In this document: in pieces, positions 50,231 to 64,000 of the stretch
Position numbering within the stretch: position 1 is the first letter of the stretch
Layout: each line of letters begins with the position of its first letter
NCBI GenBank assembly: GCA_964610875.1
Contig: CAZSWP010000017.1
Span: 1-64,000, forward strand
DNA from: an uncultured archaeon
GTDB taxonomy: Archaea; Asgardarchaeota; Thorarchaeia; Thorarchaeales; Thorarchaeaceae
Direction: 5' to 3'
Length of the DNA: 64,000 nt
Made by a program: the position numbers and the translations under genes
Notes under the pieces: generated by a model
Seen by the model: the letters and a program-made list of their open reading frames with translations, nothing else
Database searches by the model: none
What the model was told of the DNA's origin: nothing

Positions 50231-52036
50231 GTGTGGAAAAATATGAATATTATGCTATTCTTACTCGTATCGCTGATTGTCCATGCGATACCTATTCCAT
50301 ATACTCCAGGAATGCTTAGGATAAATCGCTTGATCAAATGGCTTCCATTCAGGTTGTTCTGGGGATTGCTTTCATGGCTCTTCATCTGTTTCTTCGTGGC
50401 CATGACACTACCCTGGGCTTTGATTACTCTTGTAATGAGCTTTGGTATACTCCTGCTCATCACTAGTGGTTTTCGACCCGGAGATGTGGAAGAGATGATT
50501 CAAGGTCTTAGATTACCCTTTGCATGTCTAGGATTCATCATGATTATTCTAGTCCCTGGGTTTACTGGAATCATTACATGGACATCAGATGTAGCAAATG
50601 CACAGACTGTTGATGAGTTAATCACAGTGAGTGAACCGCCCCTTTTCGACAATCCAATCCCTGATAATCAAGTCAGATTAGTCACTGATGCTTATGCATC
50701 ATTTGTCGCAAGGCAACAATTTGCAAGTATTGGATCAAACATAGAGATAGCTGCGACTCATATCACAACGCGGAATAACCGGTTGGTCTGGGTGTGTGTC
50801 GTGGTTTCTACAAATGTGCTGTCAGAGAACTTTCTCAAAGCTTTGATTGTTGTTGATGCAAACGATCCTTCAATGGTCGAGGTCATCGACTTCAGTGAAT
50901 ATGATATGGAAATTCAAGTTGGAGAAGGACTATTCTATGATAGAAATATCCAGTTTGGTAATTACATGGAGGACATGACCAATGCGTATGAATACGCATA
51001 TCCTACATGGGACCCATTAGGTGAGCTCTGCTATATACAGACGCGAACAAACCTCGGATGGGACTTTGTTGAGAGACCTCTTGGTCCTAAAATCTATTTT
51101 GAGAATGGTAGTGTGGTAGCCTACAACACAGTTGAAGAAACCCCTGAATGGGTCACTCAAGCATATAGTGAGGAATGGTTCGAACGTCAGATATATCGTT
51201 GGGGTGGTTACCAAAGAAGTGATGGATTTGACCTCTTTGCAGGCGGATTCCTTTGGATTATCCCACCATCAAATGACCGTCTTGAGATGACTGAAGATAC
51301 ACGATATATCTTGAATCCTGACACCGGGCTTGTTGAAGCATTCCTGGCAGTTCATCCACCTGGAGAAAGCTCAAGCTCTCTATCCCTCAGTGGTATGGTA
51401 AGAGGCACGAAAGATCAGATCTTTTATTATGACCTCAGTGATGCAGGTTTTTCCAGCGGTGAGGCAGCGATAAATGAGGTAATCAAAGCATTTCCCGACC
51501 CGAACACTGGGACCTACTTTGGTGCAATGCCACTCATCTATCCTGTTGTCATTGATTCTACTAGAACCGAGTATGCATGGTATTGTCCAATATATTGGTG
51601 GGATGGTTACTATGATTCAGATGCTGAAGAGTACTATGTTTCAGATATTCGGCTTCATGCTCTAGGGATGGCTTATGCCAAGGATGTATCTACCAATTTC
51701 GTTCTTACCAGACAGGGTGCTGTCACTGGTGCAAATCTAGTGAAAGAAGTACGAGAAGGATTCGTAGAAGAAATGGGTGGAGTTATAGAAGACACAACAG
51801 ACACATTTGAGATTACAGCAGATGTTGTGGGAGCAAGCTCCTATGTATATGATGGAGATACTCATATCGTACTTGAAACGAACAATGCATCATATCAATA
51901 CCTAGAGGGATCTCTAGCTTGGATGAATCAGACTGATTGGTATGTGTTACTTGGTCTTGAGGACGGCGATAATTTCACTGCAACAGTGAAATTTGTTGGT
52001 GACCAATATAGAATAGTCGCTATCACTAAGAACTAG
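50231..52036 (+). CDS. Hypothetical membrane protein with large extracellular domain
   Basis: Several N-terminal TM helices then a ~480-aa acidic, aromatic-rich domain. Confidence 0.75.
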   Translation: MWKNMNIMLFLLVSLIVHAIPIPYTPGMLRINRLIKWLPFRLFWGLLSWLFICFFVAMTLPWALITLVMSFGILLLITSGFRPGDVEEMIQGLRLPFACLGFIMIILVPGFTGIITWTSDVANAQTVDELITVSEPPLFDNPIPDNQVRLVTDAYASFVARQQFASIGSNIEIAATHITTRNNRLVWVCVVVSTNVLSENFLKALIVVDANDPSMVEVIDFSEYDMEIQVGEGLFYDRNIQFGNYMEDMTNAYEYAYPTWDPLGELCYIQTRTNLGWDFVERPLGPKIYFENGSVVAYNTVEETPEWVTQAYSEEWFERQIYRWGGYQRSDGFDLFAGGFLWIIPPSNDRLEMTEDTRYILNPDTGLVEAFLAVHPPGESSSSLSLSGMVRGTKDQIFYYDLSDAGFSSGEAAINEVIKAFPDPNTGTYFGAMPLIYPVVIDSTRTEYAWYCPIYWWDGYYDSDAEEYYVSDIRLHALGMAYAKDVSTNFVLTRQGAVTGANLVKEVREGFVEEMGGVIEDTTDTFEITADVVGASSYVYDGDTHIVLETNNASYQYLEGSLAWMNQTDWYVLLGLEDGDNFTATVKFVGDQYRIVAITKN

Positions 52037-52094: not shown

Positions 52095-52649
52095 TCAGGA
52101 TTTTCCAGTCATTTTTGCTTTCAGTGCACTGTACTTGCTTTTGACCATGCTCCACACTTTCTGACGCCGTGACACGAAAGCATTTGTATGAATTGGGCAA
52201 CGGTCACCAAGCGGGCATTCATCTGAAAATCCACCATGTTCCTCAAGTGCTTTCACAAGGGCATTTTGAAGAAGTTCCTCTTCAAAATCGTTCATCACAT
52301 CGCTTGTTATATGAATCCATTCGATTTCCTTGAACCTGTCCTGTTCAAGCACAGCAGATACTGCTTTGAATACTTTTTCGGCAACCTCAGGATTGTCCTC
52401 CCCCAGTCCGACAACAACGCTGTGACCAGTTGGGGTGGTTTTTGAGAACCGCATCTGAGTTGGTCCCATCTTTATTGACTCTAGAGAAAGCCCATCCCCA
52501 ATTGTCGGAGGGATAGTTTCTATTGCAGAGAGAAAACCTGATAGTAATTCAGGATTCTTGAATGCAGTTTTACAAAACATTCCATAGCATTTGCTGTAAA
52601 TAGGCAAGCCAGCTTCAGTATAGACCATGAGATATTCAAGGATTGGCAT
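52095..52649 (-). CDS. Longin-like domain protein with C-terminal Cys/His motif
   Basis: YLMVYTEAGLPIYS and LLSGFLSAI longin-type motifs; CPLGDRCPIH. Confidence 0.7.
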   Translation of the reverse strand: MPILEYLMVYTEAGLPIYSKCYGMFCKTAFKNPELLSGFLSAIETIPPTIGDGLSLESIKMGPTQMRFSKTTPTGHSVVVGLGEDNPEVAEKVFKAVSAVLEQDRFKEIEWIHITSDVMNDFEEELLQNALVKALEEHGGFSDECPLGDRCPIHTNAFVSRRQKVWSMVKSKYSALKAKMTGKS

Positions 52650-53987: not shown

Positions 53988-54323
53988 TCAATTAATTTGC
54001 TGAACTATCAAGCGCTTAGAGGAATCATATCCTATTGTTACGCGACTGTCAACTTTGATTGATTCAATAAGCTCGGGAGCCACATGACATAGTGCTTGTA
54101 GTCCTTCATCCAGTTCTACCAGTGCAAGGAAAACATGTGACTCAAAACCTTCAGGAGGTCTATGAAGAGTAGTATGACTCTTTATAGTACCAATTGGTTT
54201 CATTAGAATCAATTCAGTCTTTTCTTTTGTGTCAGGACAAAATGGACAAGTTTCCCGAGGGGGGATTACATTTCTCCCACAGAATCTACAATGAGATGCT
54301 TCTATTCCATCAGAAACCAACAC
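53988..54323 (-). CDS. DUF35 Zn-ribbon/OB-fold protein
   Basis: CRFCG...PPRETCPFC, GTIKSHT, ALVELDEG. Confidence 0.85.
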   Translation of the reverse strand: MLVSDGIEASHCRFCGRNVIPPRETCPFCPDTKEKTELILMKPIGTIKSHTTLHRPPEGFESHVFLALVELDEGLQALCHVAPELIESIKVDSRVTIGYDSSKRLIVQQIN

Positions 54324-54369: not shown

Positions 54370-54708
54370 TTAACCCTTTTTCGTTTTCAAGGTGCGAACG
54401 ACAGTTTTCATATGTTTCTTAATGAATTTCATAAACTTGATATCCTCAGTCAGATGAAGCTGAGTTCCATTGGAAAGAGAATTGATATCTCCATCAATCT
54501 CAATGGCTTCACCAAGGTCAATAATATCCTGTTTGAATATCCCCTCTATTGCATGAGGAGAGAATCCTTCTTTCTTGTAAACTGGGAAAATCTGTCCTTT
54601 TGTCGCACTACCACCCATCTTTACAAGTGATAGAACCATTAGCCAATGATGCCAAGCTAACGTATAGTTCTCAAGAAATCTCATTACTTCATCAAGCGAC
54701 TTTGTCAT
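54370..54708 (-). CDS. Hypothetical protein, possible winged-helix fold
   Basis: LSLVKMGGSATKGQI pattern; last gene of a tight operon. Confidence 0.7.
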   Translation of the reverse strand: MTKSLDEVMRFLENYTLAWHHWLMVLSLVKMGGSATKGQIFPVYKKEGFSPHAIEGIFKQDIIDLGEAIEIDGDINSLSNGTQLHLTEDIKFMKFIKKHMKTVVRTLKTKKG

Positions 54709-54722
54709 TTGTATTATCCACC

Positions 54723-56114
54723 CTAATCTGTATCATTGTTTTCTTCTGCTTGACCTGTTTCTTCATCTTCTGTACTAGTATCTACTTGTTCTGTTACTTC
54801 TTTAATTGCTTCTTCATCCATACCCGCAAGATTCTTTGCCACTTCTGAAAGGTTCATGGGTCGGATTTTGTCATCCTGAATCTCAACCAGACCTGCATCA
54901 ATGAATTTCTGTAGTTGTCGCTTTAATAACACCATAGGAACACCTAGAGCTGACGATAGGTGTTGTATGGGGAACCAATGCGTCTTCCCAGCAACTACAA
55001 AATACGCTTTGAATGCGGGTTCATCCTCTGCGACTTGGTAAAGCATTTCCCAACGGGCTTGCATTTCTGCAACATCTGCTTTTGCTGACCCAAATTCCTC
55101 TTCTAATGATGTAATTTCACCTTCCAAATTTGCAATTCTGGAAGAATAGGTTATATTTTCAGATTCTATTGTTTGAATTCGTCCTTTAGATTTCGCAAGC
55201 TCATCTTGAAGAGATTGGATATACTTCTCTTTTTGAAGCGTTATCTCTTCCAATTCACTGATTCTTCCTCTTGCTTCAGCAAGCTCAGTTGATTTATGTT
55301 CGAATTCTTCCACTAAATCAGCAGCAGTATCTAGTTTTTCAATCAAGTTTCTCTGTTGTTCAATCTGAGATTGAGCTTGACTCAATTCGCCTTTGGTAGC
55401 GGATAGTTCATCGTTTCGTTCAGAAACAGTTTTTTTCGCTTCTGCAAGAGAAGTTTTTAGGTCATCAATTTCTTCCTGTAATTGAACCATTGAAACATTC
55501 TTTTGCTGAACTTGAGTTTCTAGCTCTTTTGCCTTGCTCCTCCATTTTCTTGCCTCAGCCTGTGCAAGTTCGAGATTTTTTTCGGTTTCATTAATCGAAG
55601 CATAAAGTCGCAGTAATCTCTCTTGAAGAGAACCTGTTGATTTACCGATTGTCTTGGCAGTACCCCGACTAGCTTTAGTGAGAACATCTTCAACTTGTTC
55701 TTTTGCATCCGAAATGGCTTCTTGAATAATTTTGAGAATCTTCTCTATGGAAAGATTTTGTTTTAGCTCCTGATTCACAATGGATACAGCACGATTAGCA
55801 AAGACGCCCAGACCAGCTCCCTTCAGTTTTTCACTTAGCCTTTGTGAGATCCCTTCCAATTGCTTTTCAATTTCTGGTTCAGTGTTACTTAGACTATCTT
55901 CAATATTGGAGAGAATATCATCCATACGAACTTTGATTCTCTCAAAGGTTTCATCGACTTGTGACATGCCTTGGTCCGAGAAGGAGGTTTCCCCTGGTTT
56001 TTCATCCTCTAAAGGAACACCTTCTTGAATTGCTTGTTCCATAAGGATACGAGTCTTTTCTTCAATATCCTCTGGACTTTCCTCTTCAGGTTGGTCCTCC
56101 TTTCGACCTGACAC
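54723..56114 (-). CDS. Long coiled-coil protein with C-terminal winged helix
   Basis: ~200 aa of heptad coiled coil; IQHLSSALGVPMVLLKRQLQKFIDAGLVEI. Confidence 0.8.
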   Translation of the reverse strand: MSGRKEDQPEEESPEDIEEKTRILMEQAIQEGVPLEDEKPGETSFSDQGMSQVDETFERIKVRMDDILSNIEDSLSNTEPEIEKQLEGISQRLSEKLKGAGLGVFANRAVSIVNQELKQNLSIEKILKIIQEAISDAKEQVEDVLTKASRGTAKTIGKSTGSLQERLLRLYASINETEKNLELAQAEARKWRSKAKELETQVQQKNVSMVQLQEEIDDLKTSLAEAKKTVSERNDELSATKGELSQAQSQIEQQRNLIEKLDTAADLVEEFEHKSTELAEARGRISELEEITLQKEKYIQSLQDELAKSKGRIQTIESENITYSSRIANLEGEITSLEEEFGSAKADVAEMQARWEMLYQVAEDEPAFKAYFVVAGKTHWFPIQHLSSALGVPMVLLKRQLQKFIDAGLVEIQDDKIRPMNLSEVAKNLAGMDEEAIKEVTEQVDTSTEDEETGQAEENNDTD

Positions 56115-56125
56115 CTATGTGCACC

Positions 56126-56503
56126 TCAGTGCAAAATTCCACGATATCCCATAGATGTAAGTTTTGCAGCTGTTTCCTTCAACTCTTCAGAAACAGTTGC
56201 TGCTTCCTGAATTCTAGACATCAATTCTTTGCGGAATTCAATTGCTGTCAGTTCACCTTTGTCAAGCCGTTCTGTAAGAGCACTGCGTTCATCCTGAAGT
56301 TTTTCTCGTCGTTTTTGAAGTCGCTCATAGTCCGCAACTAATTTCACCAACTCACCCTGTGTCTCCGGATCAAGTTCATCCACATCAGGAGGTGTTATAC
56401 CTTTCTCAGGCATCGGGGTAGATGGCGTCATAATTTCACGTGCTTTCACAGTAGTTCGTGATTTCTTTTTCTTTCGTCTTCTCCAACTGTCAAATAGACC
56501 CAT
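56126..56503 (-). CDS. Small coiled-coil protein
   Basis: MGLFDSWRRRKKKK N-terminus, helical hairpin C-terminus; GGTGGAG SD-like motif upstream. Confidence 0.75.
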   Translation of the reverse strand: MGLFDSWRRRKKKKSRTTVKAREIMTPSTPMPEKGITPPDVDELDPETQGELVKLVADYERLQKRREKLQDERSALTERLDKGELTAIEFRKELMSRIQEAATVSEELKETAAKLTSMGYRGILH

Positions 56504-56515
56504 TGTTCTCCACCT

Positions 56516-57082
56516 TTACATGTTTTCGATTTTTTCTTGTATCTCTTTCAATTGAATTTCAAATTCCTTGCGCATTTCAGAGGCGACTCTCGCTTTATCG
56601 GCATATTCATCTGCACCAGCAGGGTCATTTAACTCCATTTCAGCAAGTTCATTCTCTTTTTCAAAAAGACGCGCAATCTTTGTCCGAATTTCATCAGCTT
56701 CTCTGAGTAATTCGTCCTTTGAAGCATCATGCGATGGTTCAATATCCTCTGAGGGTGTTTCCTCCCTTTCAATGATTACTTCATCATCTGATGTATCCTC
56801 AGCTGATTCTTTGTAGGACCTAAGACGGACAGATATACCCTGCTCCAATTCTTTCTCCAGTTTTTCCATTCGGCTTACAATATCATCCATCTTGGATTCA
56901 AATCGTTTTATCGTGACTGTCTGTCTATCAATAGTTTTGAATAACTCATTAGCAAAATCCTCAAAGTTAAGGCCATACTTGAAACTATCAAGGGTTTCTT
57001 TCATCTTCCCAATTTCTGTGATTAATCTGCGGCGTTCTTCTTCATTAACAATAGACTTGGATTCATCACTGTGTTCACTCAA
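56516..57082 (-). CDS. Coiled-coil protein
   Basis: Heptad-rich acidic protein; TTG start at 57082 after a GAGGTG SD-like motif avoids overlap. Confidence 0.75.
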   Translation of the reverse strand: MSEHSDESKSIVNEEERRRLITEIGKMKETLDSFKYGLNFEDFANELFKTIDRQTVTIKRFESKMDDIVSRMEKLEKELEQGISVRLRSYKESAEDTSDDEVIIEREETPSEDIEPSHDASKDELLREADEIRTKIARLFEKENELAEMELNDPAGADEYADKARVASEMRKEFEIQLKEIQEKIENM

Positions 57083-57083
57083 T

Positions 57084-57965
57084 CTACTCCACCTCAATAT
57101 CTCCCACAATTCTAAAATCAATTGTTTCGAAAGCCAAAGCTTTCAGTAATTTCAACCATCTATCCCGGAAATCTCGCTGGTTTGCTTGCATGCCATAAGC
57201 AGGTACATCAAGTCGTTTTCCAACCTCTTGGGGTGATAAAGCACCCTTCAAGTCCTGTTTATTTGCGATAGCAATTGCTCTCGCATAGGGTAATTCCTGT
57301 TTCAATACAGGATATGCCACACGTTTGGTCCATGCTAGATTTTCCTTTGTTGAATCTGCAACAATTACCACCATACTCCCAGCACGGATAATTTTTCCCC
57401 ATTCTTGGACAAACCTATCCTGACCACCAAGGTCGAATATACTGAAAACATACGGATCAAAATCTGCTTTCAATAGCGATTTGTCACCAAAGAATGTAGG
57501 CACATATTCTTGAGGAGGTCCCTGTGATGGTAATGTCGCCAGTTCAAGCAAGGTTGTTTTTCCAGTACCGCCATGCCCTGCAAGGCATAACTTGACTGGA
57601 ATTCTTCCTACAATGTTCCTGAAACCTGTCTTGAAAGGTGAGAAATCTGTTGATTTCCATTCATTAGATTCTAATGTACTCTCAAATGCTGTCATGAATT
57701 TTGATACTAGATTCATTATTGCTTCTTCTACTTTGGACAATGAAGCTTGACGATCCATGGTTACAATAAATTGTGTATCATGGCTGTTCATGTAGACATA
57801 TCTGAACCGTTCGATTTCCATGGAATCAATTTTCCATTCTTGAAGTTTCTTTGCAGAAGATGATACGAGCATCATGACAGCACTGCCATCAAGATCATTA
57901 TTGGGTACAATGATATCTTGAAAGAGAACTTGTCCGTCTTTAAACACATTGATCTCTCGGAGCAT
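57084..57965 (-). CDS. Longin-like domain fused to Arf-like small GTPase
   Basis: N-terminal MLREINVFKDGQVLF...FRYVY...TQFIVTMD; G1 GHGGTGKT, G2 PT, G3 DLGGQ, G4 NKQD. Confidence 0.88.
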   Translation of the reverse strand: MLREINVFKDGQVLFQDIIVPNNDLDGSAVMMLVSSSAKKLQEWKIDSMEIERFRYVYMNSHDTQFIVTMDRQASLSKVEEAIMNLVSKFMTAFESTLESNEWKSTDFSPFKTGFRNIVGRIPVKLCLAGHGGTGKTTLLELATLPSQGPPQEYVPTFFGDKSLLKADFDPYVFSIFDLGGQDRFVQEWGKIIRAGSMVVIVADSTKENLAWTKRVAYPVLKQELPYARAIAIANKQDLKGALSPQEVGKRLDVPAYGMQANQRDFRDRWLKLLKALAFETIDFRIVGDIEVE

Positions 57966-58172: not shown

Positions 58173-61100
58173 CTATTCTTCTTCTGGTTCTTCTTCAGCT
58201 TCAGACACTGCCTCCTTTTCTTCTTCGGATTCCGATGTTTCTTCAGATTCATCCTCTACTTCCTCCAGGTCAGATTCCGATTCCTCCTCGATCTCTTCAT
58301 ACTCAGGAAGTGTATCGTCATCAGAACTGGTAGATTCATCATCAATGTCTACTTCTTCATCGGTTTCGCCCATATCGGCTTCTTCAACCTCAGGTCCCTC
58401 AGCTTCAGATGAAGTCTCTTCAGGTTTCTCTGAAACCTCAGCATCAGCAGATGATGTGTCCTCAATATCCTCGGTTTCAGAATCATCAGTTTCAATTGAG
58501 GCATCGTCCGTTTCATCAATTTGCTCAGCTTCTTCAGCTTCTTCTGCTTCCTCAAGCTCAGCACCTTCAGACTCATCATCTTCAACGACTTCTTCAGCTT
58601 CAGTTTCCTCAACATCTTGTGATACTTCAGATTCATCAACATCAGATGCTTCATCAACGGGCCTTTCTTCTACAATGGAATCGAGTTCAGCTTCTAACTC
58701 AGATTCATAATCCTCAGATATGTCCTCCTCAGGAGCTTCGTCGGCACCAATCTCATCAAGAGCGTCTAGTTCGCCCAAGAGATCATCGGTTTCTTCTGCC
58801 AGAACATCGTATTCATAGCCCGGACCAACATCAATTGCTGGAGCAGAGATATCAAGTTCAGCAAGTCCTGCTGCAAGAAGTTCAGAAATAACTTGACCCA
58901 TAGACTTGATGTTCTCAACCTTCGCGGTCTTCTGATCTTCAATTGCACTGACTGCCTTATTGATCTGTTTGATGACTACAGGTATCTTCCAACGACGATA
59001 GCCTACCGCGGCACCAGCAACAGCACCGAATAATACAGTCATGTACAGGATTGTCATCAATAGAGAAACAGGAACGACTAGAAAACCAGATAACCCAATT
59101 GGACTTAGGATATCTAAAGTCTGTTCTGAGATTGTTACCTGGATAGCCACATCCGTCTTATTCTCGTACATCGGTGCAGTAGCACTGAGATATACAGAGT
59201 ATGGTTCTGCACGAAGCTCACCAATCTGTTCTGTGACAAGACTGATGAGATAGTGTGAACCATTGTATGTAATTTGACCTGCTGACAGTGTATATGTAGC
59301 AATAGGAGTTGTTACACTCACATCAATAACATTGTTTGTTCCAATCGGAACTTGATTAGCTAGGTCAAAGTATTGGAACACAATCCATAGTGTACTTCCT
59401 TCCTCTGCAACCACTGAAGGTCCAGTTAGAGAGGTCCTTGCATAGATGGTCAAGCTTGGATGAATAGTTATAGTGGTATAGTTCACAAGTGTAGCAGTGA
59501 TGTTGAGTTCAAGCACACCAGGGATGTAACTAAGATCGATATCAGAGGGATCAAAGTTCAGCTGATATTGACCAGTGCCTGCTTGGTAAGTTGCAGTATA
59601 GTCAGTACCGGCATATGTCATGGTTATGGTAGCCCCCACAAGATTGCCAGATAGACTGACTGCAGTGTCTGATATAGAGAACGTCAGCAGGATGTCAAGA
59701 CCTGTTGCATCGGTATATACTGTGTAGCTTGTTGCATCTGCACTGAGTTCAGTATCTACTGTTTCGATCGTGATATCGAGTACATAATCTGGTATGGTGT
59801 AGTTCTCATTTATGACTCGGATGTAGAGTTCATACACTCCTGCAGGTACTTCTCCCGCATTTATGACGACGAAATAGTCATCATTGTCATCATAGAATGT
59901 CAAAGGATGGAGCGTTATGTATCCACTCCAGAGATAGAACACATCCGCAAACTCAATTGGGACATTTCCTCTGTAAATATCATTGACTCCGACACGGACC
60001 TCGAATGTGTTTGACCACTTTACTGTGATGGAATCATCACTGGGCATTGTGAGTTCATCAGGAATAATTACTCCCTCAATTGGATTGACAATTACACTCG
60101 TTGTATTGAAGCTGTCAACATAGTTCGGTAGAGTATAGTTCAAAGTAAGAACATACCCCTCATCCCGGGCTGCGAACCATAAACTAGATGTGAAATTAAC
60201 TCTGAATGTTCCATTCTGATAGTTTATCATATTCTCGGAATACGGTCCATAGTATACCGTGATTGATGCACTCTCCCATATCATACCTCCGTGCAGTGCA
60301 TCGTAGAGTGTAGCAGTGATAAAGATATTATCAGACCAATAGACATCCTCAACTACGTCTATTAAGAGAGAAGTATCGGTCTCTCGCATCAACACGAATA
60401 CGGTTTCTGGAATATCGTGTGTCTGAAATCCTTCAAGGAAGATATCAATTTGAATGATGTAGAAACTCGCACTCACAGCAGCTGTCATTCCAAGAGTCCT
60501 AGTATCAATCAATAGACTGTAGGTGCCATTCTCATGGTTAAACAAGCCCATTATTTCTACAGCAGGATTGACAATTTGAGTTATTGAACTATCATATGTT
60601 TCAATTCCATCCCCAGTCAAAGTATTATTCCAGAAGAAGCGAATCTCGAATATGTCCGCATAGTATTGTTCAAAGTATTGCTGTTCAAGGATAATCTCAT
60701 TTGGTACTGCAAGAATCCTCACAAAGATTGTTGTTACATCGGTGGTTGCTCCTGCATCAGTTGCAGTAATAATAATCTCGTAGAGTTCAGATTGTGGTAC
60801 CGCATCAAACGCATTCAATGAGATATTGTAAAATCCACTGCCTTGTCCATCCAAACCACCTTCAAGGTCTACAATGGACTCAAGATACCAGTCATAGCTG
60901 ATTGTTGCTGAATCCACAGGTGTAGTTGTCCTTGATTGGTCCCATAAGAAGACCTCGAGTACAAACGATTCGGTCCAATATACCTCAAGAGGATTCTCAG
61001 AGGAACCAAATTCGGTCTCAATGAGTAATGGTACACGTATATTAACTGTCAGCTGGAATGCTGCATTATCGTGGTTATCTTTTGAGAATGTTATATCCAA

Positions 61101-64000
61101 GACGTAGCTACCAGATTCAAGGTTAGTACCCAACGATATTGAGTACTCCCCATCGCCCATATATGCTACATTAATTGAGTCTGTCCAGTTGTGTGTATAT
61201 GACGCTCCAGATAATGGAACAGAACCTGCAGTTCGTTCATAAAATATCAAGAAATTAGCTGTTCCCAACCAATCAACTGTGATATCACTAGACCCAGTGA
61301 CACCCATCGTTATGGGAGCTGGAGACACAGTTAGCAGACTTGCTAAAGCTTTTGTGGCTTGAGCATAGTTTGCTTTGGAACATGTGATAGTTAAGTTCCA
61401 ATCACCAACTGGAAGTAAATCACTTGAGAATGTATAGGTAAATGTACCACCTGAGGCAGAAAGTGTCTTCGTTGCATTGAGATATGACACACCTGCATCA
61501 GTGTACCATCTTAGAACCACTGTAACACTGGAAAGTCCAGGATTGGTTGTGTTGTCTGGATCGAAAATGTAAGTGAATGTGATATCCTGAGTCGTTCCTA
61601 CATTCCAATCATAACCTGAAACTGGTGTGATGATTACCTGCATTGGAATTTCTTCTACAGTTATATCACCAGTGATTGATTGACTGATATAGTTCTGTTT
61701 CTCCAAGCTGATAATCAATGTGTAGAAATCAACATTGAGTTGGTTTAAGACACTCTGTGGAAGAATGAACACATCTCCGCTTGGATTAAGGTCACCAGAG
61801 GCAATTGTTGTTGATCCTCGTTTGATAGTATATGTATAGATGTCTAAATCTGTCACATTCACATTATTGGTTGTATCCTCTAGCCAGAACTGGTAATCAT
61901 TATGAGACCCATAGTAATCAACTATCGAGGTTGTTTCAGATCCATCATCTGTCAAAGCATTTTGAACTGTGACATAGAGAGTGATTGGCGCTGGGTCATC
62001 ATAGGTATCAGTATGAGCGCTCACCCGTATTGTATATGGAGTTTCAGAAGCATTCATCAACCAATAGTCAGTATCAATAATGATTGTGAAATTGATAGTT
62101 CCATCATTGGTTACATAGAAGTACCCTGAGTTATTCCAAGTACCTGAACCAATAAATGTGGATTCGAAGAAGATACTGAAGTTGACCCAGGTAGTGACAT
62201 AGGAAGATATCTGACTTGTATCATTATCACCATCTCTATCATAATATCCCACAATAGCAGTGGCATTCCTTCCCCACCGTACATTGAGGAAATATGCAGT
62301 AGAGTTGAGTTCGGTATACTGCTCATTATATGTAGGTGCTATGATGTAAATAACATTCTCATAGGTCCAATCAAAGTCACATTTTACTATGACAGATGAT
62401 TCGGACTGATCGCCTGAAATGACGTCCACAGTGTATGATAGAGAATATGGACTACTCATGTTTCCATGAATGTAGAAGAATGTGACCTGACCTGAACTAT
62501 TAGTGTTTCCTTGAGCAATAAGACCAACACCCACTAGAGTTACGTTTACCTGAGCATTTTGAACAACTGCTTCAGTTCCTTCCTGTCTTACTTCAATGTT
62601 TAGTCTAGTGATAGCAAGATTTACCGTGAAAGTAATCTCACCCTGTACATTTGTCTGAATGATATCTGCAGTATTATTGCGAGCGGTCTGAGTCAGAGGA
62701 TAGTCATCGTCCTTCCAGACATCCATCTGCCATGTACCATTCACAATACGATAGAACTCAAAGTACCCATTCTCATCAGAAGTTGCAGTAATAGAGTATG
62801 CATTCTCATTTAGTGTGTTATTGATTTTAATGGTGGCACCTTCCACAGGTTGGTCATCCCAGCTATTAACGTAGATGTTCATGGTAACAAGTGGTAGTAC
62901 CCAATCGGGATGGCTGAAAGAACCTCCTATAAACTCAGTCTGACTTATTGTCCAAGCACCGAAATTGGTCATATCATCGTAAGTATAGCTGTCTACTGGA
63001 CCATCATATCTTACAAAGACATCGTAATCACCAACAGGCACGCGATAGAAATACGCCCAACCAGTACTGTTCACTACATCATAGTCTGTGAAGTTAGCTG
63101 TATTGCCATCCGGAGATAATCTTACGGTCGTTGTTTCGTCTGGATTATCATTCATAGAATCGGACATTAGATCATCAAAGTGAATTTCAATTGACGCTAG
63201 GTCTAGAGTTATTGTCACAGGTGTAACAGAACCAGTGATTGCTTGGTTTGTGGAGTCTGTGCTTTCCCAGACCTGTGAGGAAGATAACCAAGTTGCAGTA
63301 ATGTTTGTACGGATATCATAGGTTATGTTGCTCAGACCTTCGAAGATTATCAAACCATTTGCATCAGTAGTGCCAGTCCGAGTTCTTCCATTGTCATCTT
63401 CCCAAACATCACCAGTTGTATTGTATAGTGTAACGGTGGCGCCTTCAACAGGTACACCATCTAGGTCTACTACAGTTACATCCAACTCGAAGAGGTTTAC
63501 CTCCTCTCCAAGGTCAATTGAGAATCCATTCTGGTCATTTTCAGGAGAATAAGCTGGTACCATCCATCCAAATCCCGTATCAGAAGTTGGATAATACGGA
63601 GATGTGGTTGAGAATTTGCCAACATCAACAACGCCGACTGTTGCGTTTGATGTGATGTGATAGAGTGTCATGCTTGTAGACCAAGGCATGAAATATGTCA
63701 TTCCACCCTTAGGAATCTCAAGTGTTTGGCCGTTATAGCCTTCAATGTCCACTTCTGCATTCTCAAGAGCAACAATCATGAATTTGTAACTTCTAGTTCC
63801 CCAGAGTTTGTAATTACTACCGTAACGATCACCAGTGATTGTGGGCACCCAATCCCCTGCATCTGTTGCAGAAGTTGGATTGTAGAGTCCCTCTACCATA
63901 ATCATGTAATTCTCCTCTGCTACAATGTGGAGGATATCTTCAGTATTGGTATCACTTGCCGTGCCACGAGCGATAAGCTGTGAGCTGTTTGCCGCTATAG
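58173..64000 (-). CDS. Giant type-I membrane surface glycoprotein (>1940 aa, continues beyond the window)
   Basis: Frame open to 64000; beta-sandwich/carboxypeptidase-regulatory-like repeats (DGVPVEGATV, GTTDANG), many NxT/S sequons, one TM then RRWKIP, very acidic tail. Confidence 0.9.
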   Translation of the reverse strand, partial: IAANSSQLIARGTASDTNTEDILHIVAEENYMIMVEGLYNPTSATDAGDWVPTITGDRYGSNYKLWGTRSYKFMIVALENAEVDIEGYNGQTLEIPKGGMTYFMPWSTSMTLYHITSNATVGVVDVGKFSTTSPYYPTSDTGFGWMVPAYSPENDQNGFSIDLGEEVNLFELDVTVVDLDGVPVEGATVTLYNTTGDVWEDDNGRTRTGTTDANGLIIFEGLSNITYDIRTNITATWLSSSQVWESTDSTNQAITGSVTPVTITLDLASIEIHFDDLMSDSMNDNPDETTTVRLSPDGNTANFTDYDVVNSTGWAYFYRVPVGDYDVFVRYDGPVDSYTYDDMTNFGAWTISQTEFIGGSFSHPDWVLPLVTMNIYVNSWDDQPVEGATIKINNTLNENAYSITATSDENGYFEFYRIVNGTWQMDVWKDDDYPLTQTARNNTADIIQTNVQGEITFTVNLAITRLNIEVRQEGTEAVVQNAQVNVTLVGVGLIAQGNTNSSGQVTFFYIHGNMSSPYSLSYTVDVISGDQSESSVIVKCDFDWTYENVIYIIAPTYNEQYTELNSTAYFLNVRWGRNATAIVGYYDRDGDNDTSQISSYVTTWVNFSIFFESTFIGSGTWNNSGYFYVTNDGTINFTIIIDTDYWLMNASETPYTIRVSAHTDTYDDPAPITLYVTVQNALTDDGSETTSIVDYYGSHNDYQFWLEDTTNNVNVTDLDIYTYTIKRGSTTIASGDLNPSGDVFILPQSVLNQLNVDFYTLIISLEKQNYISQSITGDITVEEIPMQVIITPVSGYDWNVGTTQDITFTYIFDPDNTTNPGLSSVTVVLRWYTDAGVSYLNATKTLSASGGTFTYTFSSDLLPVGDWNLTITCSKANYAQATKALASLLTVSPAPITMGVTGSSDITVDWLGTANFLIFYERTAGSVPLSGASYTHNWTDSINVAYMGDGEYSISLGTNLESGSYVLDITFSKDNHDNAAFQLTVNIRVPLLIETEFGSSENPLEVYWTESFVLEVFLWDQSRTTTPVDSATISYDWYLESIVDLEGGLDGQGSGFYNISLNAFDAVPQSELYEIIITATDAGATTDVTTIFVRILAVPNEIILEQQYFEQYYADIFEIRFFWNNTLTGDGIETYDSSITQIVNPAVEIMGLFNHENGTYSLLIDTRTLGMTAAVSASFYIIQIDIFLEGFQTHDIPETVFVLMRETDTSLLIDVVEDVYWSDNIFITATLYDALHGGMIWESASITVYYGPYSENMINYQNGTFRVNFTSSLWFAARDEGYVLTLNYTLPNYVDSFNTTSVIVNPIEGVIIPDELTMPSDDSITVKWSNTFEVRVGVNDIYRGNVPIEFADVFYLWSGYITLHPLTFYDDNDDYFVVINAGEVPAGVYELYIRVINENYTIPDYVLDITIETVDTELSADATSYTVYTDATGLDILLTFSISDTAVSLSGNLVGATITMTYAGTDYTATYQAGTGQYQLNFDPSDIDLSYIPGVLELNITATLVNYTTITIHPSLTIYARTSLTGPSVVAEEGSTLWIVFQYFDLANQVPIGTNNVIDVSVTTPIATYTLSAGQITYNGSHYLISLVTEQIGELRAEPYSVYLSATAPMYENKTDVAIQVTISEQTLDILSPIGLSGFLVVPVSLLMTILYMTVLFGAVAGAAVGYRRWKIPVVIKQINKAVSAIEDQKTAKVENIKSMGQVISELLAAGLAELDISAPAIDVGPGYEYDVLAEETDDLLGELDALDEIGADEAPEEDISEDYESELEAELDSIVEERPVDEASDVDESEVSQDVEETEAEEVVEDDESEGAELEEAEEAEEAEQIDETDDASIETDDSETEDIEDTSSADAEVSEKPEETSSEAEGPEVEEADMGETDEEVDIDDESTSSDDDTLPEYEEIEEESESDLEEVEDESEETSESEEEKEAVSEAEEEPEEE

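Follow-up and report, generated by a model that had tools for sequence, protein, structure and literature searches.

Five genes (g1-g5) at positions 54370-57965 of a 64,000-nucleotide stretch of DNA from an uncultured archaeon of the family Thorarchaeaceae (order Thorarchaeales; contig C17 of a metagenome-assembled genome, CAZSWP010000017.1, positions 1 to 64,000, hereafter the window) form the downstream part of a larger module, in which the genes for a longin plus double winged-helix protein (here called LW) and for a giant surface protein come first and g1-g5 follow. The first gene of the block, g1, encodes a longin-fused Arf-like GTPase, and the core of the module that is conserved across Asgard archaea is composed of LW, g1 and the small helical partner g3, with g2, g4, g5 and the giant protein being lineage-level additions. 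Gene structure, domain identities, synteny and co-occurrence make up the established part of this work. As the best reading of these data, we tentatively propose, with a probability of roughly 40%, a membrane-proximal GTPase switch (g1) that is equipped with a regulator (LW), an anchor (g3) and scaffolds.

A core module conserved across Asgard archaea

Synteny was compared across a non-redundant set of 87 Asgard loci that contain a g1 homologue. In 47 of them, the gene directly before the g1 homologue encodes an LW homologue, and in 5 LW is found downstream; a g3-type gene follows g1 in 29. LW is found beside a g1 homologue in Jord-, Frey-, Baldr-, Atabey- and Hermodarchaeia, and also in a paralogous module in the genome from which the window derives. 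The arrangement varies between lineages: LW-g1-g3 in Jord- and Freyarchaeia; giant protein-LW-g1-g3-short g4 in Atabeyarchaeia and LC30; LW-g1-coiled coil-longin plus winged helix-short g4 in Baldrarchaeum; and, in Hermodarchaeia, LW placed after g1. In the genome studied here, the giant-protein gene sits between LW and g1, starting directly after the LW stop codon and ending 207 nucleotides before g1 (in some genomes, its stop codon lies no more than 10 nucleotides from the g1 start). In Thor-, Jord-, Frey- and Atabeyarchaeia, the gene after g1 encodes a predicted protein of the g3 type, which has an invariant Met-Gly and an N-terminus that is amphipathic or basic.

The paralogous module (contig C14, L031:5271-7875, genome G000) encodes an LW-like protein of 368 residues, a longin-GTPase of 283-286 residues and a 178-residue protein, which has helical ends, a Pro/Ala-rich linker and the motif DLRFDYMRGYIPEEEY. 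The operon of Baldrarchaeum yapensis (L026:4091-7858) encodes LW, a longin-GTPase, a 180-residue coiled coil, a 303-residue longin plus winged-helix protein with weak NPR2 and DUF742 matches, and a 157-residue protein that carries the g4-type winged helix; the two longin-winged-helix subunits of this operon recall the NPRL2/NPRL3 pair.

Gene organization

The five open reading frames of the block are arranged head to tail on one strand (Table 1), with intergenic gaps of 1, 12, 11 and 14 nucleotides (g1/g2, g2/g3, g3/g4 and g4/g5, respectively). GGTG, the core of the archaeal Shine-Dalgarno sequence, is found 11-14 nucleotides upstream of all five start codons, a spacing seen at only 3% of window positions, and the exact motif is absent before the next three genes downstream of g5. 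The first-pass annotation of the window, which had described a tight five-gene operon with Shine-Dalgarno-like motifs, is thus borne out. Translation of g2 is taken to start at the TTG at 57082, one base past the g1 stop codon, where homologues align from residue 1; the TTG at 57121, which would give the longest open reading frame, was rejected, as it would overlap g1 and homologue alignments begin at 57082. Close orthologues from Candidatus Thorarchaeota are 74-87% identical. A shared promoter was sought upstream of g1, where the intergenic regions could not be aligned and no common TATA-like box was found. The sequencing runs that contain the stretch are DNA runs from one microbial-mat study, with no RNA run listed.

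Table 1. Coordinates of the block and of the two upstream genes of the module (window positions unless stated otherwise).
Feature	Position	Strand	Description
g1	57084-57965	minus	293 residues; longin + Arf-type G domain
g2	56516-57082	minus	188 residues; acidic; no known family
g3	56126-56503	minus	125 residues; Met-Gly start; no known family
g4	54723-56114	minus	463 residues; coiled coil + winged helix
g4 winged-helix domain	54804-55073	minus	conserved part of g4 family
g5	54370-54708	minus	112 residues; basic; orphan of Thorarchaeales
Giant surface protein	58173-64000, on to contig position 65336	minus	2387 residues; upstream of g1
LW	contig C17 65338-66501 (L033:2338-3501), past window end	minus	387 residues; longin + two winged helices

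The longin-Arf-like GTPase g1

The g1 product is composed of an N-terminal longin domain (residues 1-119), which ends in an Arf-like linker helix (residues 111-119), and an Arf-type G domain (residues 124-293). Both parts of the initial description of g1, a longin domain fused to an Arf-like GTPase, hold up. The protein matches the Pfam family Arf (7.6e-12; 45.5 bits against a cut-off of 22.3), and its P-loop (GHGGTGKTT), switch-I T157, DLGGQ and NKQD motifs, catalytic Gln included, are kept across 20 homologues. A profile built from these homologues has the Asgard ArfR protein GerdArfR1 (1.5e-24) and Arf1 (1.6e-23) as its best matches in the PDB. The AlphaFold2 model (predicted local distance difference test score, pLDDT, 86.7) leads to the same proteins: in Foldseek, the best match of the G domain is GTP-bound GerdArfR1 (8oum, 3e-11), followed by Arl1 and Arf1. 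In this model, residues 1-119 have the beta-beta-alpha-beta-beta-beta-alpha-alpha topology of a longin domain (strands E2-9, E12-18, E47-51, E54-61 and E64-71 and helices H27-40 and H76-99 as assigned by DSSP), and an iterative search connects the domain with free-standing longin-like proteins. One such protein, tied to the g1 N-terminal domain by iterative search, is encoded in the window at 52095-52649 (minus strand); it has 184 residues and a C-terminal Cys/His cluster, and is conserved downstream in the family.

In two features that define related GTPases, g1 departs from them. The defining feature of the Arf family is an amphipathic helix at the extreme N-terminus (bioRxiv 10.1101/2024.02.28.582541), whereas the N-terminus of g1 is the 119-residue longin domain and its helix is internal. 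Rag/Gtr GTPases are recognised by a C-terminal roadblock dimerisation domain, whereas the G domain of g1 runs to the C-terminus and the extra domain is the N-terminal longin. Several profile alignments reach Arf1 residues 5-13 and pair them with g1 residues 112-120, and, judging from these alignments, the interdomain helix (residues 111-119; window 57609-57635) is probably an internal counterpart of the Arf N-terminal helix. The alignment of this helix would suggest that a whole Arf, helix included, was fused behind the longin domain. No significant relation between the longin domains of g1 and LW was detected with hhalign.

LW, the putative regulator

In the AlphaFold2 model of LW (pLDDT 88.8), a longin domain (residues 1-132) is followed by two winged helices with a helical spacer between them, the second winged helix being of the ArsR type. 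In an exhaustive structural search with the longin domain, the GATOR1 subunit 8fw5_B came first (Z 10.9, root-mean-square deviation 2.7 over 121 residues), a rank tied with a Lokiarchaeal longin, the yeast SEA complex and VAMP7, and FLCN and SMCR8 were found at Z 8.6 and 8.1, respectively. Several GATOR1 chains are also among the weak Foldseek matches of LW, and in an Atlas search the first named eukaryotic family was an NPR2-like protein (TM-score 0.32). A GP motif at the start of strand 2 has been described as specific to longins of GTPase-activating proteins (GAPs) (PMC12290439), and LW has G15-P16 at this place, at the start of its strand 2 (E15-22); G15 is invariant in 33 LW sequences. 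An NPRL2-like family has been reported from most Thor metagenome-assembled genomes, with most eukaryote-like genes located outside conserved neighbourhoods (bioRxiv 10.1101/2020.10.19.343400).

The partner proteins g2-g5

The most widely kept of the block's partner proteins, g3, starts with an invariant Met-Gly and a basic or amphipathic stretch, continues through a Pro-rich linker into a helical hairpin and ends in a conserved LG-x-G tail; M1, G2, L55, G83 and G119 are invariant in an alignment of 23 orthologues. A net charge of +8 in the first 30 residues agrees with the MGLF..W polybasic N-terminus noted in the first-pass annotation, and the N-terminal stretch is amphipathic in other lineages, where the Jord/Frey forms have a hydrophobic moment of 0.6. 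Relatives that match over the full length are found in Thor-, Jord-, Frey- and Atabeyarchaeia and others, and an Atlas feature search returned no named look-alike. We know of no report of N-myristoylation in archaea.

The g2 protein is helical in its N-terminal part and ends in a helical hairpin, with an acidic linker in between, and its orthologues are always encoded immediately after g1. The basic g5 protein (isoelectric point 9.2) is marked by conserved WHHWL and EGF motifs. It had been labelled winged-helix-like, which was not confirmed: a g5 profile has no significant match in Pfam, NCBIfam or the PDB sequences, the rows of an Atlas feature search are unnamed or, as for DUF2551 and MarR_2, score below 0.9, and hhalign finds no relation to the g4 winged helix or to LW. 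An exhaustive search of 1.84 billion representatives with the same profile returned 11 proteins, all from its own narrow family or chance repeats. That g2, g3 and g5 belong to no recognisable family, as had been noted from the sequence, agrees with Pfam and NCBIfam, in which none of them has a match at threshold (for g2, there are sub-threshold coiled-coil matches only). Comparisons by hhalign of g2, g3 and the coiled-coil partner of the paralogous module gave E values of 4e-4 to 0.03, with the motifs aligning at the expected place, and at these values a shared C-terminal hairpin domain is not claimed; a SHOCT-like nature of this hairpin, for which there is no Pfam match, was not adopted. Also unsupported is an ESCRT-III/PspA assignment for g2 and g3, to which the N-terminus of g3 had been likened: neither protein has a Snf7 or PspA_IM30 match at E values up to 1, and g3, at 125 residues with only some 60 helical ones, falls short of the helical core of about 200 residues that marks these families.

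In g4, an acidic N-terminus is followed by a coiled coil of about 250 residues, a winged helix and an acidic tail. The coiled coil has only coiled-coil-type matches in Pfam and NCBIfam, all below threshold, while the C-terminal domain profile matches ArsR-type winged-helix proteins (2p4w, 5e-5; 1uly, 7e-4; LrpA, 1i1g, 2e-3), so that the earlier description of g4 as a long rod plus a C-terminal winged helix stands. Short relatives of 157-239 residues with the same C-terminal domain are encoded in the Atabey, LC30 and Baldr loci.

The giant surface protein and probable stepwise gene loss

The giant protein has a signal peptide, beta-sandwich adhesin-type (prealbumin-like) domains, with Pfam matches to CarboxypepD_reg, SdrD_B and DUF6795, one transmembrane helix, a juxtamembrane segment and a polyacidic tail. 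The cytoplasmic tail is 275 residues long and has a net charge of -107. Its first approximately 60 residues, with the motif IP-x-x-IKQI-N..MG.V.SELLAPGLAELD, are conserved across Thor genera, unlike the ectodomains, which are only 30-50% identical, and the proteins of Atabeyarchaeia and LC30 share the first part of this juxtamembrane motif.

About half of the genomes of the family, among them several that are at least 90% complete, do not have the cluster, so that it counts as accessory. Reduced clusters (LW-g1-g3-g5) are present in seven Thor genomes and an intermediate form (LW-g1-g3-g4-g5) in one. The giant protein, g2 and g4 vanish jointly or stepwise, the giant protein being lost together with g2 in the reduced clusters, and LW, g1, g3 and g5 remain; g2 and g4 are dispensable in several genera. 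In the g1 tree, the backbone of which is unresolved, a supported trio (87/96) comprises the full, intermediate and minimal forms, and this points to a stepwise loss, of the giant gene and g2 first and then of g4.

Proposed mechanism and alternative explanations

In the proposed model, g1 would be the switch of a conserved Asgard small-GTPase module, and LW would pair with it through longin-longin contacts and set its nucleotide state, similar to eukaryotic longin complexes with GAP or guanine nucleotide exchange factor (GEF) activity. The complex would be brought to the membrane by the Met-Gly basic or amphipathic N-terminus of g3, comparable to the helix at the start of Arf proteins or to LAMTOR1/Ego1 as an anchor. 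For Thorarchaeales, the model has g2 and g4 (acidic coiled coils) and g5 as effectors or scaffolds that may tie the switch to the conserved juxtamembrane part of the giant protein's cytoplasmic tail. This mechanism is supported by how widely LW-g1-g3 is conserved, by the way in which the giant protein, g2 and g4 are gained and lost together, and by the acidic winged helices. A single complex prediction for LW, g1 and g3, with g3 as the scored partner, gave a score of 0.00, which speaks neither for nor against binding.

Several points weigh against the model. The protein contacts, the membrane binding, the GAP or GEF activity and the link to the giant protein are all things that we infer. With regard to LW, P16 of the GP motif is confined to type-A LW of Thor (7 sequences), and no conserved Arg that could act as an arginine finger is present in the longin domain among the 33 sequences. 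The loop before strand 5 carries K78, at a position that we take to be equivalent to NPRL2 R78; one genus has Arg at this place, and other LW subfamilies lack the loop. None of the 33 members matches the Pfam families NPR2 or Folliculin, the matches being to helix-turn-helix and winged-helix families only, and the ties of 8fw5_B with unrelated longins weaken the fold match to NPRL2. The winged helices of LW and g4 have bona fide ArsR-type helix-turn-helix signatures, which leaves room for a DNA-binding output. The hhalign values for g2, g3 and the paralogous-module coiled coil give a kinship of these proteins weak support at most, and gene order at family level has little weight by itself, since within the family the synteny extends to the flanks.

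An unlikely alternative is a signalling module with a transcriptional output, in which the GTPase would control the winged-helix proteins LW, g4 and g5 as DNA-binding factors, similar to prokaryotic small-GTPase operons with helix-turn-helix-like proteins such as the actinobacterial conservon CvnA-D. LW matches HTH_20 (2e-8) and HTH_5 (1.6e-5) in Pfam, the archaeal regulators Phr and LrpA are among the matches of the g4 winged-helix profile, g5 is basic, and a neighbour in Baldrarchaeum has the weak DUF742 match mentioned above. In public records, LW and its orthologues are called 'hypothetical' or ArsR, HxlR or MarR family regulators, names that reflect only the winged-helix domains. Yet the ArsR-type winged helices are acidic (net charge -7 in LW) or close to neutral (-1 in g4, where the domain lies between strongly acidic segments), which fits a use in protein-protein contacts and argues against DNA binding. 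Their nearest structural analogues, in NPRL2/3 and ESCRT-II, use winged helices for protein contacts, and the module is tied to a giant membrane protein and a membrane-anchor-like protein rather than to a target regulon.

A more specific idea, which we regard as speculative and distinctly unlikely, is that the module is an archaeal receptor-tail device for signalling or sorting, in which the giant adhesin-like type-I protein would be coupled via its juxtamembrane helix to the Arf-like switch, the membrane-binding helix of the latter being outsourced to g3, with LW as regulator and g2 and g4 as coiled-coil effectors. If true, the recognition of cargo tails, or tethering, at membranes under GTPase control would have a prokaryotic forerunner in this module.

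That the genes have no joint function, and are unrelated genes that have been packed and inherited together in one family, is very unlikely. All full-type loci of Thorarchaeaceae that were examined, from more than 10 genera, keep the order g1-g5, with identities to the window proteins of 78-87% for g1, 59-72% for g5, 44-68% for g3, 49-57% for g2 and 37-42% for g4; g1 is thus far more conserved than g2-g4 (37-68%). Close relatedness explains much of this family-level conservation, given that the flanking metabolic genes are likewise syntenic in Thorarchaeaceae. However, the order extends to a second family of the same order (genome G025), where the genes are arranged as g1-g2-g3-g4, a gene for a 510-residue longin protein and g5, with other flanks; the conserved gene order on which the first-pass idea of a joint machine depended was thus found. 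In addition, LW-g1-g3 recurs in distant classes, and the Shine-Dalgarno spacing is the same at all five starts. The g5 gene is present in 46 of 85 genomes of family f1, in the 1 genome of f2 and in 1 of 313 other Asgard genomes scored, the last at a borderline E value of 9e-4; in all 24 family genomes in which the two were compared, g5 goes together with type-A g1, but these genomes are kin, so that this agreement is not an independent statistic.

Most improbable is a segregation or division machine, one of the roles suggested at first, in which g4 would be an SMC- or CdvA-like rod, g5 a kleisin-type winged-helix partner and g2 and g3 ESCRT-III/PspA-like membrane remodellers: the SMC/Rad50 matches of g4 (TIGR02169, 6e-11) are far below the cut-off (for example 40.7 bits against 729) and confined to the coiled coil of a protein that has no ABC (ATP-binding cassette) ATPase head or hinge, so that this assignment was rejected; the CdvA coiled-coil matches of g2-like proteins from other lineages are sub-threshold; the basic N-terminus of g3 belongs to a protein with few helical residues; no Snf7, PspA or CdvA domain reaches threshold in g2 or g3; and a cluster absent from so many genomes, with g2 and g4 dispensable, is hard to reconcile with such a role.

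Neighbouring genes

Just downstream of g5 lies a gene for a DUF35-type OB-fold (oligonucleotide/oligosaccharide-binding fold) and zinc-ribbon protein (53988-54323, ChsH2-like), and just upstream of LW a thiolase-like gene (L033:3742-4923). Genes of these two types usually work as neighbours; here, they are separated by the 12-kb GTPase module, and reduced clusters have the same flanks. A 601-residue membrane protein without a Pfam family (50231-52036, plus strand) is encoded in convergent orientation towards the cluster region, and is kept nearby in both Thorarchaeales families (43-67% identity, full-length matches) and not in other lineages.

Relation to known systems

The longin-Arf-like fusion has been known from Asgard archaea since 2016 (Klinger et al. 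2016, as summarised in PMC4917890; Tran et al. 2024, PMC10933270), and neither it nor the NPRL2-like family of Thor genomes is new. The Asgard longin-fused Arf-like or 'Rag-like' GTPases have the same architecture as g1, with DxxGQ and NKQD motifs, and the nearest solved relative of g1 is GerdArfR1. As described in these sources (PMC4917890, PMC10933270), the fusion comes without a conserved operon, whereas g1 is part of a module with five to six partners; as a rule, the GTPase genes of MK-D1 do not share operons with roadblock, longin or TRAPPC3 genes (PMC10933270).

LW resembles the GAP-longin complexes GATOR1 (NPRL2-NPRL3-DEPDC5), FLCN-FNIP and C9orf72-SMCR8-WDR41 in having a longin domain followed by winged helices, with GATOR1 among its best fold matches, in the Gly-Pro at the start of strand 2, and in its neighbour, an Arf/Rag-like GTPase with a longin domain of its own. 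In contrast to these complexes, the module has no counterpart of DEPDC5, DENN or WDR41, and LW lacks a conserved arginine finger and an NPR2 or folliculin profile match. The Rag GTPases of these systems have a C-terminal roadblock where g1 has an N-terminal longin, and LW is encoded outside the five-gene block. The small, helical g3, with its Met-Gly and basic or amphipathic N-terminus, is the partner most widely kept beside the GTPase and recalls the Arf N-terminal helix and LAMTOR1/Ego1 of Ragulator/EGO, in pattern only and not in sequence or fold. A long coiled coil with a small C-terminal globular domain, encoded in the operon of an Arf-like GTPase, is reminiscent of Arl1 and the GRIP-domain golgins, and Arl1-golgin complexes are among the g1 fold matches; the C-terminal domain of g4, however, is an ArsR-type winged helix and not a GRIP or GRAB domain. 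In the prokaryotic operons for MglA-MglB-RomRX and the actinobacterial conservon CvnA-D, a Ras-superfamily GTPase is likewise encoded with a roadblock- or longin-fold regulator and helix-turn-helix-like proteins. They differ from the module in that the G domain of g1 is Arf-type and not MglA-type and in that a sensor-kinase-like CvnA is missing; g2, g3 and g5 are unrelated to RomR and RomX as far as profiles tell.

Significance

Asgard genomes encode hundreds of small GTPases as well as longin and roadblock proteins, and the pairings of these GTPases with regulators and effectors are mostly unassigned. The papers searched contain no report of a conserved pairing of an NPRL2-like longin-winged-helix gene with a longin-Arf-like GTPase gene, of a g3 family with an Arf-like N-terminus, or of the Thorarchaeales-specific partners g2, g4 and g5 and the link to a giant surface protein. 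Genome layout has been considered of little help for pairing Asgard GTPases with regulators (PMC10933270), and it has been asked which GTPases partner the GP-motif, FLCN/NPRL2-like longins of Asgard archaea (PMC12290439). The module described here is a concrete, conserved pairing of an NPRL2-like longin-winged-helix protein with a longin-Arf-like GTPase, and makes the latter question experimentally addressable. It also offers a candidate membrane anchor (g3), lineage-specific coiled-coil partners and, in the giant protein, a candidate membrane client, and all of its products except the giant protein are small enough to be expressed and tested. The block is a testable partner set for proteins that are related to the controllers of eukaryotic membrane traffic. 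If the contacts hold, the module would join the few GTPase systems of Asgard archaea whose partners are defined, and could show what role Arf/Rag-type switches had before organelles existed.

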